Shown piece by piece: positions 743 through 7,293 of a DNA stretch of 64,000 nt (within the stretch, counting starts at the first letter, position 1; the number at the start of each line of letters is the position of its first letter). A program made the translations under genes and the position numbers. Below the pieces are notes generated by a model. That model was given only the letters and a program-made list of their open reading frames with translations, ran no database searches and had not been told where the DNA came from. Origin of the DNA: Candidatus Multivoradales bacterium. GTDB lineage: Bacteria; Acidobacteriota; Thermoanaerobaculia; Multivoradales; JAHEKO01. Location of the stretch: contig CBDCXM010000009.1 of NCBI GenBank assembly GCA_965223855.1, positions 608,001 to 672,000 of the forward strand, written 5' to 3'.

Positions 743-1145
743 ACTTCGGCCTTTGATTCAAAGGCCCAGATCTTTGAGACGTAGAGAATCTCTCTTGCGA
801 GAGCGATCAGAAGGGGAAGATTCATGGAGCAGCGTCAACGCTGGCGCTGTTCGGGCTCCCGAGCCCTCTTAATGGGGACACATCCCCGCGACCGATTGCG
901 GTCGAAACCTTCCACCACCCCTTGGCTGACTACCTACTGGTCTCGGTCTGACTATTCTCAGATCTAGATCGAATTGGTTCAGTTAGGAGTTGTGAGAGGA
1001 CAACGCGGCGGCAGCTGCGTTTGAAAGACGGGTTAACCAACGCTTCATCCCGGCGAATCTCGATCCAACCTTCTTTTCGGCGGCGGAAGGGCAATGGAGT
1101 CTTTCCGAGATTGCAAGGAGGTTTTCTATGAAAACCAAAGATCTG
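743..1145 (+). ncRNA. Putative retron ncRNA (msr/msd-like structured leader) overlapping the start of the small ORF
   Basis: No credible sense-strand ORF. Hairpins at 748-766, 827-852, 853-866, 874-887, 889-904, 1002-1021 and 1053-1114. Bracketed by the long duplex 767-800/1111-1145. Lies upstream of a retron RT. Confidence 0.7.
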
Positions 1146-1349
1146 TCGCTCGCGCTCGCCAACCTTAGGCGTCTTCGGGCGGAACCGGGATTGGAGTTAG
1201 GTCATCGAAAGGTCCTGAACAAAGCTGAGAGGGAACTGAAAGCAGTAGCGCGATCAGGTAAGCCGCAACCCGACAGGGTATATCGAGCGGTAGAGCTGAT
1301 TTGCGAAGTTGCTCTTGAGGTGCTCTTTCAGTCGACGTCGGTGCGATAG
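1128..1349 (+). CDS. 73-aa basic helical small protein, candidate retron effector/toxin
   Basis: Strong SD AAGGAGG (1115-1121) 6 nt before the ATG; first gene of the retron operon. Confidence 0.75.
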   Translation: MKTKDLSLALANLRRLRAEPGLELGHRKVLNKAERELKAVARSGKPQPDRVYRAVELICEVALEVLFQSTSVR

Positions 1350-1380
1350 ACCAGGTTAACCCGTATTTCCATGAACTTCT

Positions 1381-2688: not shown

Positions 2689-5600
2689 ATGCTTGATCGT
2701 CAGGTCGAATCAGGCCTGAACGTCTTCCACCCGACGATCGCGCGCTGGTTCACCGAGTCGCTCGGCACACCGACCGACGTCCAGGCGCGCGCGTGGCCGC
2801 GGATCGCCGCCGGGGAGCACCTGCTGGTCAGCGCTCCGACCGGTACCGGCAAGACGCTGACCGCGTTTCTGTGGGCGCTCGACCGGCTGCTCACCGGAGC
2901 GTGGGAGGGCGGGCAGGTGCGGGTGCTCTACGTCTCGCCGCTGAAGGCGCTCAACAACGACGTGCGGCGCAATCTGCTCTCACCGCTGGCGGCGTTGGAG
3001 ACTGCGTTCGAGACCGCCCGAGAGCCCTACGAGCCGGTGGAGGTGATGACCCGCAGCGGCGACACGCCGCAATCGGAGCGCCAGCGGATGGTGCGGCGGC
3101 CGCCGGAGATCCTGATCACGACGCCGGAGAGCCTCAACATCCTGCTCACCTCCAAGGGCGGGCGGTCGATCCTCACCGGGCTCGAGACGGTGATCTTCGA
3201 CGAGATCCACGCCGCCGCCGGGTCGAAGCGCGGCACCCACTGGATCACCGCCGTCGATCGGCTGGTGCCGCTGGCGGGGGAGTTCCAGCGCATCGCGCTC
3301 TCCGCCACGGTGCGGCCGCTCGAGACGGTGGCGCGCTTCGTCGGCGGCTACGAGATGCGGCCACTCGACGACGAGGGACGCGAGGTCGAATACCGCGAGC
3401 GGCCGGTCGGGATCGTCACCTCGGAGCGGGCGAAGGCGTACGACCTCGAGGTCGATCTCGGTGCGCCACAGCTTGCGGACGCGACCGCACCCGGCGGCAC
3501 AGTCCCGGGCACAGGCGAAGCCGGCATCAACGAAGACAAGGAGGAGAATGCCTGGGAGAGCCTCGCCGCCCGCATCGTCGACGTGGTGGCGCGCAACCGC
3601 TCGACGCTGGTGTTCGCCAACTCGCGCCGCACCACCGAGCGGCTGACGCGGCTGATCAACGAGCGCGGGAGCACCACCGGCAACGCCAGTCTCGCCTACT
3701 CCCACCACGGCTCGCTGTCGCGGGAGCTCCGCACGGTGGTCGAGCGCAAACTCAAGAACGGTGAGCTCCGGAGCATCGTCGCCACCAACTCGCTCGAGCT
3801 CGGCATCGACATCGGCTCGCTCGACGAGGTGGTGATGGTGCAGACGCCGCCGACGGTCGCGGCGGCGGTGCAACGGCTCGGGCGCGCCGGCCATCAGGTG
3901 GACGCCGTCTCGCGCGGGCGGCTCTATCCGCTGTTCGAGCGCGACCTGGTGAGCGCTGCCGTGGTCGCCCGCTGCGTGCTCGAAGGGGACATCGAGGAGG
4001 TGCGGCCGATCGAGGGGGCCCTCGACGTGCTCGCGCAGGTGATCCTCTCGATGGTCGCCACCGAGGCGTGGCCGCTCGACCGCCTTTTTCACACCGTGCG
4101 TTCGAGCGCCCCTTACCACCGCCTCAGCCGGCGGCAGTTCGACCTGGTTCTCGAGATGCTCGCCGGCCGCTACGCCGACACCCGGGTGCGGGAGCTGGCG
4201 CCGCGGGTGACGATCGACCGGGTCGAGGGGGTGGTGCACGCGCGCCCCGGGGCGGCGATGAGCGTCTACCTCTCCGGCGGCACGATCCCCGACCGCGGCT
4301 ACTTCGGCCTGCGCACCGTCGACACCATGGCGAAGCTCGGCGAGCTCGACGAGGAGTTCGTCTGGGAGCGCCGGGTCGGCGACACCTTCTCGCTCGGCGC
4401 CCAGAACTGGCGGGTGCGGCGGATCACTTCGAGCGACGTGCTCGTCTCCCCCGCACACCGCTCGGCCGCCATGACCCCGTTCTGGCGTGCCGACGCGCGC
4501 AACCGCAGCTTCTTCCTCTCCGAGCGGCTGGGCACGTTCCTCGAGACAGCCGACGCCCATCTCGAGGAGCCGGGCGGCCGTGAGGCGCTCCTGGCCGCCC
4601 TCACCGAGCGCCACGCGCTGAGCGCCGAGGCCGCCGCCGCGCTGGTCGATCTGCTGGAGCGCCAGCGCGAGGCGACGGGCGGGTCGCTCCCCCATCGGCG
4701 CCATCTGCTGGTCGAGCACGCCGACGACGCCACCGATCAGTCGGGCGGCAGGCGGATGCTGCTGCACACCGGCTGGGGCGGGCGCGTCAACCGGCCGTTC
4801 GCCATCGCGCTGGCGGCGGCGTGGGAGGAGCAGAGCGACCTGCCGCTCCAGATCGAAGCCGAGAACGATGTCGTGCAGATCGTCCTGCCGTCGCCGATGG
4901 CGATCGACGACCTGCTGGCGCTGGTGCGGCCCGACAACATCGAGAGCCTGCTGCGCGCCCGGCTCCAGCGCACCGGCCTCTTCGGCGGCCGATTCCGCGA
5001 GAACGCCGGCCGCGCGCTGCTGCTGCCGCGCTCCGACCTGCGACGCCGGATCCCGCTGTGGCTCACCCGCGAGCGCTCGAAGAAGCTCCTCGAGTCGGTC
5101 GCCGGCCACGAGGACTTCCCCGTCGTCGTCGAGACCTGGCGCACCTGTCTGCAGGACACCTTCGACCTGGAGGCGCTGCGCCAGGTGCTCGATGAGCTCG
5201 ACCGAGGCGAGATCCGCATCACCGAGTGCCGCACGCTCGCACCGTCGCCGTTCGCCGCCGCACTGGTCTGGCAGCAGACCAACCGGCTGATGTACGAGGA
5301 CGACGTGCCGGAAGGGGGCGGCGAGCTCAGCCGCACTCTCCTCCAGGAGCTGGTGTTCTCGTCGCAACTGCGCCCGCGACTCCCGGCCCAGTTGATCGAC
5401 ACGTTCCAGCGCAAGCTCCACCGCACCTTCCCGGGGTACGCGCCGACGACGATCCCGGAGGTCGACGCCTGGATCGGCGAACGGTTGGCGCTGCCGGTCG
5501 AGGAGTTCGAGGCGCTGCTTGCGGCGCGGGCGCGCCAGGTCGGCGACGCCACTACGGCCGAGCTGCTGGAGCTGGTCGATACCGAGGCGTGTGTCGTCAG

Positions 5601-7293
5601 CACGGCCGGCGGCGGGCGCTGGATCTCGGCACTCGAGCGCCTGCCGCGGGTGCTGCGCGGGCTGTCGTTGACTCCCGAAGACGTCGAGCTGACCTCGATC
5701 ACCGACCCTGGAGGGCCGGTGTCCGCGGAGTTCCGCTCCCATCTCGAGGAACTGTGGCAGAGCCGTGAAGATCCGGGCGAGGGCGCCGGGGAGGCGCTAC
5801 GGGCGCTCCTTGCCGAGTGGCTGCGCTTCTACGGCCCGATCCCGCCACGGATGCCGGTCGCGGTCTTCGGGCTCGAGCCCGCGGCGGCGCAGCGCGCGCT
5901 GGCGGCGCTGGTCGACGACGAGACGCTGGTGCTCGACCGCTTCCGCCGCGACGACGATGACGAGGAGCTGTGCGACGCCGAGAATCTGGAACGATTGCTG
6001 CGGGCGCTGCGCGCCCAGGCACGACCGTCGTTTCAGGCGCTACCGCTCGACCATCTGCCGCTGCTGCTGGCCGAGCGTCAGGGGCTTGTTGGCCGCGGCG
6101 ACGGCATCGAGGGGCTGCAGGACGCGCTCGAGGGGTTGCTGCTCTACCCGGCGCCGGCCGGGAGCTGGGAGTCGGATCTGCTGCCGGCGCGCCTCGCCCC
6201 CTACTACCCGGCGTGGCTCGACTCGGTGCTGCTCGAGAGCGACCTGGTGTGGATCGGCTGCGGGCGCGAGCGCACGACCTTCACCTTCGCCGAGGAGCGC
6301 GAGCTGCTGGCGGAAGCGCCGATCGACGAGGACCTCGCCGGAGAGCTGCCGCCGGAGATCGACGAGGCGTTCGCCTTCGGCCGCCGCCGGGCGTTCGAGG
6401 AGCTGGTGCGCTCGCAAGATGCACCGGCGGCCGACCTGGCGGCGAAGCTCTGGCGCGCGGCGTGGCGCGGCGAGCTGTCGAACACCACCTTCTCGGTGGT
6501 GCGCCAGGGAGTACTCCAGCGTTTCAAGCCAGCGGCAGCGGCGGAGCGGCGTCCTCCGAGGCCCGGCGGCCGGGGCAGCCGCTCCGCCGTCGGCCGACGC
6601 GCCTTCGATCGCTGGAAGTCGGCGCGTCCCTCGGGCGGCGACTGGTTCCGGCTCGACCCGGTCGCCGCGCCCGAGGACCCGCTGGCGGCCGAAGACCTCG
6701 AGCGCGACCGCGCCCGGTTGCTGCTGTCGCGCTACGGCATCCTCTTCCGCGAGCTGCTCGACCGCGAGCTGCCGAGCTTCCAGTGGTCTCGGATCTTCCG
6801 CGCCCTCAGACTGATGGAGCTCTCGGGCGAGGTGGTGGCGGGGCAGTTCTTCGAGGGAATCCACGGCCCGCAGTTCGTCTCGCGCTCGACCTGGCGGCGG
6901 CTCTCCGAGGGACTCGGCCAGGGGGAGGTCTACTGGGTCAGCGCAATCGACCCGGCGGCGCCGTCGGGGATCGCTCTCGACGAGTGGCGCGAGCGCTGGC
7001 TGCCACGCCGCTCGTCGAACCACCTGGTGTTCGAGGGGACGCGGCCGGTGGTCCTTTCGCGCCGCCACGCCGCCGAGCTCGACATCACGGTGCGCCCCGA
7101 CCACCCGAAGCTGCCCGAGTATCTCGGCTTCCTGAAGGTGCTCCTGACGCGCGACGCTCAGCCACGCAAGGCGATCGACATCGAGACGATCAACGGCGAG
7201 CCGGCCAAGCGGAGCGCCTTCGCCGGCCCGCTGGGAGAACTCTTCAGCACCACCCGCGAGGCGAAGAGCCTGCGGCTGCGCCGGCGCTACTGA
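2689..7293 (+). CDS. lhr: Lhr family ATP-dependent helicase (full-length, 1534 aa)
   Basis: APTGTGKT, YVSPLKAL, TTPESL, DEIH, SAT, HHGSLS, SLELGIDIG, QRLGRAGH, GGTIPDRG and the Lhr C-terminal region. Confidence 0.93.
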   Translation: MLDRQVESGLNVFHPTIARWFTESLGTPTDVQARAWPRIAAGEHLLVSAPTGTGKTLTAFLWALDRLLTGAWEGGQVRVLYVSPLKALNNDVRRNLLSPLAALETAFETAREPYEPVEVMTRSGDTPQSERQRMVRRPPEILITTPESLNILLTSKGGRSILTGLETVIFDEIHAAAGSKRGTHWITAVDRLVPLAGEFQRIALSATVRPLETVARFVGGYEMRPLDDEGREVEYRERPVGIVTSERAKAYDLEVDLGAPQLADATAPGGTVPGTGEAGINEDKEENAWESLAARIVDVVARNRSTLVFANSRRTTERLTRLINERGSTTGNASLAYSHHGSLSRELRTVVERKLKNGELRSIVATNSLELGIDIGSLDEVVMVQTPPTVAAAVQRLGRAGHQVDAVSRGRLYPLFERDLVSAAVVARCVLEGDIEEVRPIEGALDVLAQVILSMVATEAWPLDRLFHTVRSSAPYHRLSRRQFDLVLEMLAGRYADTRVRELAPRVTIDRVEGVVHARPGAAMSVYLSGGTIPDRGYFGLRTVDTMAKLGELDEEFVWERRVGDTFSLGAQNWRVRRITSSDVLVSPAHRSAAMTPFWRADARNRSFFLSERLGTFLETADAHLEEPGGREALLAALTERHALSAEAAAALVDLLERQREATGGSLPHRRHLLVEHADDATDQSGGRRMLLHTGWGGRVNRPFAIALAAAWEEQSDLPLQIEAENDVVQIVLPSPMAIDDLLALVRPDNIESLLRARLQRTGLFGGRFRENAGRALLLPRSDLRRRIPLWLTRERSKKLLESVAGHEDFPVVVETWRTCLQDTFDLEALRQVLDELDRGEIRITECRTLAPSPFAAALVWQQTNRLMYEDDVPEGGGELSRTLLQELVFSSQLRPRLPAQLIDTFQRKLHRTFPGYAPTTIPEVDAWIGERLALPVEEFEALLAARARQVGDATTAELLELVDTEACVVSTAGGGRWISALERLPRVLRGLSLTPEDVELTSITDPGGPVSAEFRSHLEELWQSREDPGEGAGEALRALLAEWLRFYGPIPPRMPVAVFGLEPAAAQRALAALVDDETLVLDRFRRDDDDEELCDAENLERLLRALRAQARPSFQALPLDHLPLLLAERQGLVGRGDGIEGLQDALEGLLLYPAPAGSWESDLLPARLAPYYPAWLDSVLLESDLVWIGCGRERTTFTFAEERELLAEAPIDEDLAGELPPEIDEAFAFGRRRAFEELVRSQDAPAADLAAKLWRAAWRGELSNTTFSVVRQGVLQRFKPAAAAERRPPRPGGRGSRSAVGRRAFDRWKSARPSGGDWFRLDPVAAPEDPLAAEDLERDRARLLLSRYGILFRELLDRELPSFQWSRIFRALRLMELSGEVVAGQFFEGIHGPQFVSRSTWRRLSEGLGQGEVYWVSAIDPAAPSGIALDEWRERWLPRRSSNHLVFEGTRPVVLSRRHAAELDITVRPDHPKLPEYLGFLKVLLTRDAQPRKAIDIETINGEPAKRSAFAGPLGELFSTTREAKSLRLRRRY

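Follow-up and report, generated by a model that had tools for sequence, protein, structure and literature searches.

The 64-kb window analysed here, that is, the whole stretch of 64,000 nt from contig CBDCXM010000009.1 of a Candidatus Multivoradales bacterium (Acidobacteriota), contains what is, judging from its genes and their order, a Type VI retron, an anti-phage system. In this locus, a gene for a small protein (SP) precedes genes for a helix-turn-helix protein (HTH) and a reverse transcriptase (RT), and the SP gene is bracketed by an inverted repeat, the two arms of which we call IR1 and IR2. It is very likely that IR1 and IR2 pair as a long-range RNA helix of the "hybrid RNA" of the retron, enclosing the SP gene. 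The arms are as follows.

1023-1038, + strand: IR1, the 5′ arm of the long-range helix, GAAAGACGGGTTAACC
1354-1369, + strand: IR2, the 3′ arm of the long-range helix, GGTTAACCCGTATTTC

The first-pass annotation of this DNA had described the arms as complementary at 15 of 16 positions, with the 3′ arm beginning at the fifth base past the SP stop codon. Direct reading and a repeat search both agree with the former (94%, the sole mismatch being G1027 opposite A1365), and the SP open reading frame (ORF), at 1128-1349, agrees with the latter. IR1 lies about 100 nt upstream of the SP start, while IR2, 4 nt past the SP stop, is 11 nt ahead of the HTH start. The core of both arms is GGTTAACC, a perfect 8-bp palindrome that occurs twice in the 64-kb window, in the two arms; 0.12 copies would be expected, and two or more were found in 1 of 100 shuffles. 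A further test searched for the best helix without gaps that the 450 nt ahead of the SP start could form with the segment running from the SP stop to the HTH start, and none of 200 shuffles of this downstream segment matched the score of IR1/IR2. Since no shuffle reached that score and two GGTTAACC sites stand against an expectation of 0.12, a chance origin of the repeat is unlikely.

Conservation and co-variation of the two arms

A tblastn search with the proteins of the window over 85 loci found RT in 85, HTH in 51 and SP in 31, and in all 31 loci with SP its gene lies upstream of HTH-RT. Of these, 22 non-identical SP-HTH-RT loci were kept, after removal of 6 duplicates and of 3 loci with short upstream DNA; the nearest loci are Acidobacteriota metagenome-assembled genomes. 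In 15 of the 22, the best-helix search placed arm 1 between −122 and −68 relative to the SP start, and arm 2 between −2 and +44 relative to the SP stop. Sequences of the arms vary from locus to locus, as in the pairs CTGATTCACT/AGTGAATCAG, TTGGGATCACTC/GAGTGATCCCAA, AGGTTGCGAATCTCCT/AGGAGATTCGCAATTT and GCCGGTTCA/TGAACCGGC. When the arms were scored against each other, cognate pairs had a mean of 10.50 and non-cognate pairs 7.87, a cognate mean that none of 10,000 permutations reached.

The homologous loci were aligned with plain MAFFT, without fitting to any structure (alignment A3). In 19 column pairs, 78.0% of the cells are paired, and sliding the partner by one column lowers this to 51.6% and 40.2%; the 78% is an underestimate owing to register slips by MAFFT, for instance in locus L007. 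Changes on both sides are found in 12 of the 19 pairs, and the cells with such changes number 39, as against 18.8 in shuffles (reached by 0 of 500). The covariation score is 0.342, versus 0.227 in shuffles, and again 0 of 500 reach it. Conservation and co-variation of the arms in homologues had been named in the first-pass annotation as a check, and the arms are indeed kept in place and change together: by these sequence comparisons, the long-range helix is conserved in position and co-varies across SP-HTH-RT loci.

RNA helix or DNA site

If the arms act as RNA, the coding strand should matter. The column pairs of A3 were counted again in A4, a separate MAFFT alignment of the reverse complements. 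In these two separate alignments, and with cells that are non-independent events, the + strand has 47 G·U or U·G cells over 18 shared pairs and the − strand 15; for the 12 core pairs, the counts are 19 and 5. Paired cells in the 18 shared pairs amount to about 80% (297/370) on the + strand versus 71.7% on the − strand. The mismatches are thus mostly of the type tolerated by an RNA of the + strand, which favours an RNA helix over a DNA operator.

An operator is a rival reading, and the first-pass annotation had raised it, as a check only. It would have an HTH dimer sitting on GGTTAACC at each site, perhaps looping the DNA, and repressing SP. The palindrome is perfect and confined to the two arms, the arms of most homologues both contain a TGAnTCA quasi-palindrome, and the adjacent gene encodes a Cro/C1-type HTH. 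Nevertheless, we regard this possibility as improbable. The sole promoter-like site is 290 and 620 bp upstream of the two arms, and the GGTTAACC motif is absent near it. The 47:15 excess of G·U-type over A·C-type mismatches on the coding strand is unexpected for a double-stranded DNA site. The recognition region of the HTH, SQLSL[IV]EAGKR, is almost the same in loci whose arms are unrelated to the family consensus (the window, L013 and L019) and in those with consensus arms, so it stays constant while the arm sequences differ. In addition, some arms have no palindromic core, as in L014, and the complementarity between arms runs past the palindrome, as in a helix and not as in two copies of a site. 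Palindromes near a promoter, and a specificity that tracks the recognition helix, are what an XRE/Cro-type operator would be expected to display; the former was not found in the window, nor the latter across its homologues. Finally, in the sections available of the preprint on Retron-Vpa2, another Type VI retron, the HTH co-purifies with the RT and the hybrid RNA (Zhang et al., bioRxiv 10.1101/2025.10.22.683967). Because of the + strand G·U excess, the constant recognition region and the distance of the arms from the promoter-like site, the RNA helix is favoured.

Canonical retrons, such as Ec86 and Ec107 with their msr-msd, have a1/a2 inverted repeats at the ends of the structured RNA, which close the molecule. 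It may be asked whether IR1/IR2 is a second priming duplex of this type, from which the RT would copy the SP region into complementary DNA (cDNA), since the repeat flanks an ORF much as a1/a2 flanks msr-msd. The first-pass annotation had suggested such an alternative a1/a2 pair, by which a protein-coding ORF would come to lie within the retron RNA. The part of the suggestion that puts the ORF inside a structured RNA holds up, on its position, on the co-variation, on the G·U excess and on the published architecture of such retrons. The priming role does not: in what is available of the Vpa2 report, cDNA came from a 63-86 nt stem-loop of msr-msd and not from the SP gene, with no other peak on the plasmid (Zhang et al., bioRxiv 10.1101/2025.10.22.683967). 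Moreover, a distinct a1/a2 stem of canonical appearance joins the two ends of the non-coding RNA (ncRNA) in the window, at 767-800/1111-1145. IR1/IR2 differs from a canonical a1/a2 in being a second, outer pair that crosses the first and encloses a protein-coding gene, and IR1 lies inside the region enclosed by a1/a2, whereas the canonical 5′ arm is at the 5′ end of the RNA. A second priming duplex is therefore, in our judgement, very improbable.

We consider it just as improbable that the repeat is a relic at the DNA level (the terminal repeats of a mobile SP cassette, or a recombination site) or a functionless chance match. The retron does lie in a low-GC island (52-60% versus 70-74%), the arm sequence of the window is unrelated to the arms of its relatives, and the SP families are modular among Type VI retrons, according to the sections available of a preprint on Retron-Sen3 (Garcia-Rodriguez et al., bioRxiv 10.64898/2026.04.27.721009). 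Against chance stand the 0 of 200 shuffles and the two GGTTAACC sites; against a relic, the same topology in the same place in 22 loci, with differing sequences and compensatory changes, and the strand-specific G·U excess. The same preprint sections also report that the RT phylogeny tracks SP cluster identity, which speaks against frequent exchange of cassettes.

Several points weigh against the long-range RNA helix that we prefer. In 7 of the 22 loci the best helix lies elsewhere, though part of these misses arose because the search, starting from the stop codon, truncated arms that enter the last codons (as in …GAG TGA TTCAG…). A separate repeat search, with a minimum of 11 nt, gave the expected pair in 6 of the 12 loci examined, including L046, one of the seven. 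Two of the five measures made on A3 are within the range of the shuffles, namely "pairs with a change on both sides" (102 of 500) and "further pair types" (61 of 500), and the shuffle controls leave the relatedness among loci in place; the strand counts carry the restrictions given with them. The arm of the window, built around GGTTAACC, bears no relation to the consensus of the family (about AATCTGAnTCACTC), and the placement of its arm 1 is ambiguous, A3 putting it 30-45 columns upstream and A4 within the arm columns. Co-variation was measured across a distant family and not on the window's own arm sequence. The minimum-energy fold predicted for the full-length RNA of one homologous locus, L029, is without the IR1/IR2 helix, and an Rfam scan of 500-2800, with E values up to 10, gave no match. 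Among the public sequencing runs listed, with 4 holders, all in one study, none is on record as RNA, and a transcript spanning 743-1380 is an assumption. Lastly, for Sen3 and its cluster, cl2075, the preprint sections available report three compensatory positions in IR1/IR2 and no statistically significant covariation (bioRxiv 10.64898/2026.04.27.721009).

The distance of the family is itself part of this difficulty. The closest RT relatives for which there is DNA are at most 45% identical, and relatives at 55-60% are known as proteins only. Genome searches for the RT found a match in 5 of the 41 genomes of relatives, the best at 37-38% identity, and in 6 of 401 genomes of a phylum sample, all at 40% or less; besides the window's own genome, these searches found no RT above 40% identity. 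A single-protein search of genome contigs yielded 137 pattern matches and no relatives. In another search, the pattern came from a 12-sequence RT alignment and differs from the window (…APTS versus APSS), so that close relatives may be missed. A locus from Yokenella, L110, was tried as an enterobacterial Type VI comparator and rejected, having neither SP nor HTH upstream.

The retron locus and its predicted RNA folds

The elements of the locus, apart from the two arms, are listed below in order; SD stands for Shine-Dalgarno sequence.

708-736, + strand: predicted sigma-70-type promoter (TTGACA, 17 nt, CATACT; 10 of 12 consensus matches)
748-766, + strand: 5′ stem-loop GGCCTTTG-ATT-CAAAGGCC (748-755/759-766, 8 bp, in both predicted folds)
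767-800, + strand: a1-like 5′ arm of the inner (basal) duplex, from the predicted fold of 743-1150
827-904, + strand: four short hairpins, the same in both predicted folds
908-999, + strand: long imperfect hairpin, candidate cDNA template, the same in both predicted folds
1002-1021, + strand: hairpin, the same in both predicted folds
1067-1075, + strand: anti-SD tract AACCTTCTT, pairing with 1115-1123 (the SP ribosome-binding site, RBS) in the full-length fold
1084-1107, + strand: conserved hairpin with a GGGCAAU-type loop, between anti-SD and SD, from the predicted fold and the alignment
1111-1145, + strand: a2-like 3′ arm of the inner duplex, holding the SD AAGGAGG (1115-1121), the SP start codon (1128) and the first codons
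1128-1349, + strand: SP, a 73-aa small protein and putative toxic effector (ORF; stop TAG at 1347-1349)
1370-1380, + strand: the 11 nt ahead of the HTH start, predicted to pair with 815-826, stacked on IR1/IR2
1381-1689, + strand: Cro/C1-type HTH protein of Type VI retrons, 102 aa (PADLOC HTH_VI, E 9.5e-19; Pfam HTH_3, E 1.9e-11)
1686-2564, + strand: Type VI retron RT, 292 aa (PADLOC RT_VI, E 1e-64; Pfam RVT_1)

By its sequence, the locus is a Type VI retron, with promoter, structured ncRNA, SP, HTH_VI and RT_VI in that order. The RT_VI match spans residues 4-277 (the runner-up PADLOC model, RT_other, has E 3.2e-47), and the RT start overlaps the HTH stop in ATGA. The NAxxH and xTG columns, like the catalytic FVDD, are invariant in 50 homologues of the RT. 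In the parts available of Mestre 2020, the HTH proteins of Type VI retrons have 91-110 aa and are encoded upstream of, or overlapping, the RT gene, and the small proteins are three-helix bundles; SP-HTH-RT is the canonical gene order there and in the Sen3 preprint (Garcia-Rodriguez et al., bioRxiv 10.64898/2026.04.27.721009). The window has each of these: the RT_VI match, a 102-aa HTH overlapping the RT, and SP upstream of HTH.

The SP is modelled, from an alignment of 22 homologues, as a three-helix bundle (residues 3-17, 24-43 and 48-71) with a predicted local distance difference test score (pLDDT) of 90.6; its C-terminal helix is hydrophobic. In Pfam, it matches DUF5955 only, below threshold. 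A search with the SP sequence alone returned SP itself as the sole match, and its relatives came from a profile search: 346 proteins at 90% clustering, mostly of 66-75 aa, with an ARSGK motif between helices 2 and 3 that is nearly invariant. They are mostly from metagenomes, with a few from Betaproteobacteria and Sinimarinibacterium. None of the 346 is annotated or assigned to a Pfam family, and the names given are almost always "hypothetical protein". A role of SP as toxin would follow by analogy with Retron-Vpa2 and Retron-Sen3.

The promoter at 708-736 is the sole match to the promoter consensus within 560-2760, and the retron RNA would start near 743. The whole retron (600-2650) is an island of 52-60% GC between flanks of 70-74%, which suggests that it was acquired horizontally. 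Its neighbours are a minus-strand ORF for a membrane protein (1-576) and a gene for a 1534-aa Lhr-type helicase (2689-7293) with DEAD, Helicase_C, DEAD_assoc and WH_Lhr domains. An ATG ORF of 47 aa at 824-967, within the structured ncRNA, has no Pfam match and overlaps predicted hairpins; it is probably not a gene.

All the folds described here are nearest-neighbour predictions. The predicted structure is strong for 743-1150 (z −8.1) and for 743-1385 (z −7.1), and unremarkable for the SP coding region alone (1151-1385, z −0.72). The assignment of msr and msd would fall within 827-1021. The 5′ stem-loop directly adjoins the start of the a1-like arm at 767, and similar GC-rich hairpins with 3-nt loops are found at the 5′ ends of L014 and L029. 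In the inner duplex, 767-776 and 1136-1145 are a perfect 10-mer pair, which in the fold of 743-1150 extends to about 767-800/1111-1145. The annotation's claim that this duplex and the IR1/IR2 helix cross is borne out by the 10-mer pair, the fold and the coordinates (767 < 1023 < 1145 < 1354).

In the RNA ending at 1150, a1/a2 is formed (−182.9 kcal/mol). In the minimum-energy fold of 743-1385 (−269.7 kcal/mol), on the other hand, IR1/IR2 is present, as 4 + 11 pairs around the mismatch, and a1/a2 is not. If −182.9 is added to the separate fold of 1151-1385 (−77.0), the sum for an "a1/a2 state" is −259.9, which is 10 kcal/mol above the IR1/IR2 state. The SD and AUG of SP are in predicted stems with a1 in the short fold, and the SD with 1067-1075 in the full fold. 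By itself, IR1/IR2 is not sterically exclusive with a1/a2; a1/a2 is absent from the full fold because the SD/anti-SD pairing excludes it. These folds fit a co-transcriptional order, in which a1/a2 would form first and IR1/IR2 after the SP gene has been transcribed. On these models, a two-state switch between IR1/IR2 and a1/a2 is plausible, and the two may also coexist as a pseudoknot.

Homologues were folded as well. IR1/IR2 is in the minimum-energy full-length fold of three of the four loci folded (the window, L040 and L014). In the truncated L040 RNA, a 5′ segment pairs with AUAGCUAUG, which includes the start codon, and the full L040 RNA forms IR1/IR2. L014 has AGATCTTTG near its 5′ end (547-560) and CAAAGATCT in SP codons 3-6 (869-877), the same sequence pair as in a1/a2 of the window (767-776/1136-1145), while its IR1/IR2 arms are unrelated to those of the window. 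By eye, homologues have pyrimidine tracts that match their SD, for example CCTTTC/GAAAGG in L040 and CCTCTCT/AGAGAGG in L024; RNAalifold predicted 0 pairs in the 90-nt region ahead of the SP start.

Regarding the hairpin at 1084-1107, its GGGC and GCCC columns are kept across 20-22 loci and its central G column is invariant (alignments A3 and A6). It ranks with the best-conserved non-coding elements of the SP-HTH-RT family (A3 columns about 113-165). The annotation had noted that GAAAGAC (1023-1029), in IR1, could instead pair with GTCTTTC (1099-1105), and the two are exact reverse complements. This local pairing is nevertheless rejected as unsupported, since 1099-1107 pairs with 1084-1092 in the predicted folds and, by eye, the homologues have no equivalent.

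Some repeated sequences in this region may be mentioned. The SP and HTH start codons share a 9-mer, TTCTATGAA (1124-1132 and 1377-1385), and a near-copy, TTCCATGAA, is found at 1367-1375, 10 nt ahead of the HTH start and with an out-of-frame ATG at 1371. TTCATG (821-826), which is paired with 1370-1375 in the predicted fold, could in principle pair with any of the three start-region copies. In addition, AACCTTC occurs as a 7-nt direct repeat at 906-912, at the base of the long hairpin that is the candidate template, and at 1067-1073, in the anti-SD tract. A cDNA of the former copy would be complementary to the latter, a situation similar to the repeat idea put forward by Zhang et al., as far as the available sections of their preprint describe it. 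A search of 643 nt for the 7-nt direct repeats of these authors gave 14 families, versus about 12 by a chance estimate, and none is claimed.

We propose that a single transcript from near 743 would contain the retron ncRNA, as template for reverse transcription, followed by the SP gene. Lying just beyond the SP stop, IR2 would fold back on IR1 and close the SP coding region into structured RNA. In the closed form, the SP RBS would be paired with the anti-SD tract at 1067-1075 and the 11 nt before the HTH start would also be paired. SP and HTH would in this way be translationally guarded, and the RNA might be a scaffold to which RT and HTH bind. The helix would then have several effects: closing the hybrid RNA, stabilising its 3′ end, and helping to mask the SP start, via a1 or the anti-SD, and the HTH start, the latter because IR2 and its extension immediately precede it. 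As long as IR2 has not been transcribed, or once IR1/IR2 has opened, a1 (767-800) would pair with a2 (1111-1145) and cover the SD and AUG; this pairing would be the canonical retron priming stem. The helix would alternate with a1/a2, and its opening may be triggered by cDNA or by phage. Possible openers are the cDNA from the template part, removal of the template by RNase H, and a ribosome reading SP to its stop.

It is tempting to go further and to view IR1/IR2 as a ribosome-operated gate that couples synthesis of toxin and antitoxin, although we think this rather unlikely. In 12 of the 15 position-concordant loci, IR2 starts at most 7 nt from the SP stop, or inside the last SP codons, and in 12 of the 15 it ends at most 12 nt before the HTH start codon, or covers it. 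With the arms so placed, a ribosome could complete SP only by melting the helix. Melting would expose the start of HTH, as antitoxin or RT-repressor, and would free IR1, allowing the ncRNA to refold into its a1/a2 priming form. If cDNA were copied across IR1, it would nearly reproduce IR2 and, because the core is palindromic, could invade either arm, giving a route from reverse transcription to the opening of such a gate. A coupling of SP and HTH via the helix is not proposed in the sections available of the Vpa2 and Sen3 preprints (bioRxiv 10.1101/2025.10.22.683967; 10.64898/2026.04.27.721009).

Comparison with known Type VI retrons

To our knowledge, Type VI is the one retron class in which the toxin gene lies within the retron's own structured RNA. 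The stem that encloses this gene is the defining feature of the hybrid RNA. Stems of this type have already been described in preprints of 2025-2026, and the window provides a new example, from a distant SP lineage and host. It adds a third, distant lineage: the host has a high GC content, the relatives come from soil-type metagenomes, and the SP family, of about 346 proteins, is unannotated. Here the place of the stem is kept and its sequence is exchanged wholesale, with an RNA-specific G·U signature, and for these reasons the case for the stem as a selected RNA element across Type VI retrons is strengthened. The locus is also a compact variant provided by nature: its 16-nt helix is clean, with a single mismatch, and the core resembles a restriction site, features that would be convenient for compensatory-mutation tests.

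In Retron-Vpa2, according to the available sections of Zhang et al. (bioRxiv 10.1101/2025.10.22.683967), an abundant hybrid RNA (hyRNA) consists of msr-msd plus the SP coding sequence, and its 3′ end anneals back via inverted repeats. SP is toxic, the RT, HTH and RNA form a complex, and translation of SP needs accumulation of cDNA. The window, by prediction, shares with this system a structured RNA with msr-msd and a masked SP gene, the wrap-around 3′ repeat, the SD and start codon in stems, and HTH and RT downstream. The SP of Vpa2 has 55 aa and belongs to the "Large" lineage, whereas that of the window has 73 aa; the hyRNA is about 470 nt in Vpa2 and would be about 630 nt (743-1370) in the window, with predicted ends. 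The conserved 7-nt direct repeats of Vpa2 have no counterpart that could be identified with confidence in the window.

Retron-Sen3, of cluster cl2075, has a "distal inverted repeat", according to the available sections of Garcia-Rodriguez et al. (bioRxiv 10.64898/2026.04.27.721009). Its IR1 belongs to the 3′ portion of the long ncRNA stem-loop and its IR2 follows the SP stop, and an alternative conformation is described in which the SP RBS, released from the basal stem, has a local pairing partner. The window shares with it the SP-HTH-RT order and the position of the two arms, IR1 towards the 3′ side of the ncRNA and IR2 immediately after the SP stop codon, and its extended fold is likewise predicted to re-pair the SP RBS locally and the region before HTH with a 5′ segment. 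A 5′ hairpin directly ahead of a1, a published Type VI feature in these sources, is present in the window at 748-766. From what is available of the two preprints, control appears to differ between these retrons, being translational and by cDNA in Vpa2 and post-translational in Sen3 (bioRxiv 10.1101/2025.10.22.683967; 10.64898/2026.04.27.721009).

The SP of the window has no detectable sequence link to a named cluster, the reference sequences of cl2075, cl2760, cl3272 and cl3897 not having been compared, and its host is of high GC (70-74% in the flanks), unlike the Sen3 lineage. In the family of the window, both partners have changed in 12 of 19 pairs and entire arms are exchanged, whereas cl2075 has three compensatory positions, in the sections available. 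The co-variation is thus clearer here than reported there for cl2075, and it gives independent comparative support to the stem that closes the toxin gene into the hybrid RNA of Type VI retrons.

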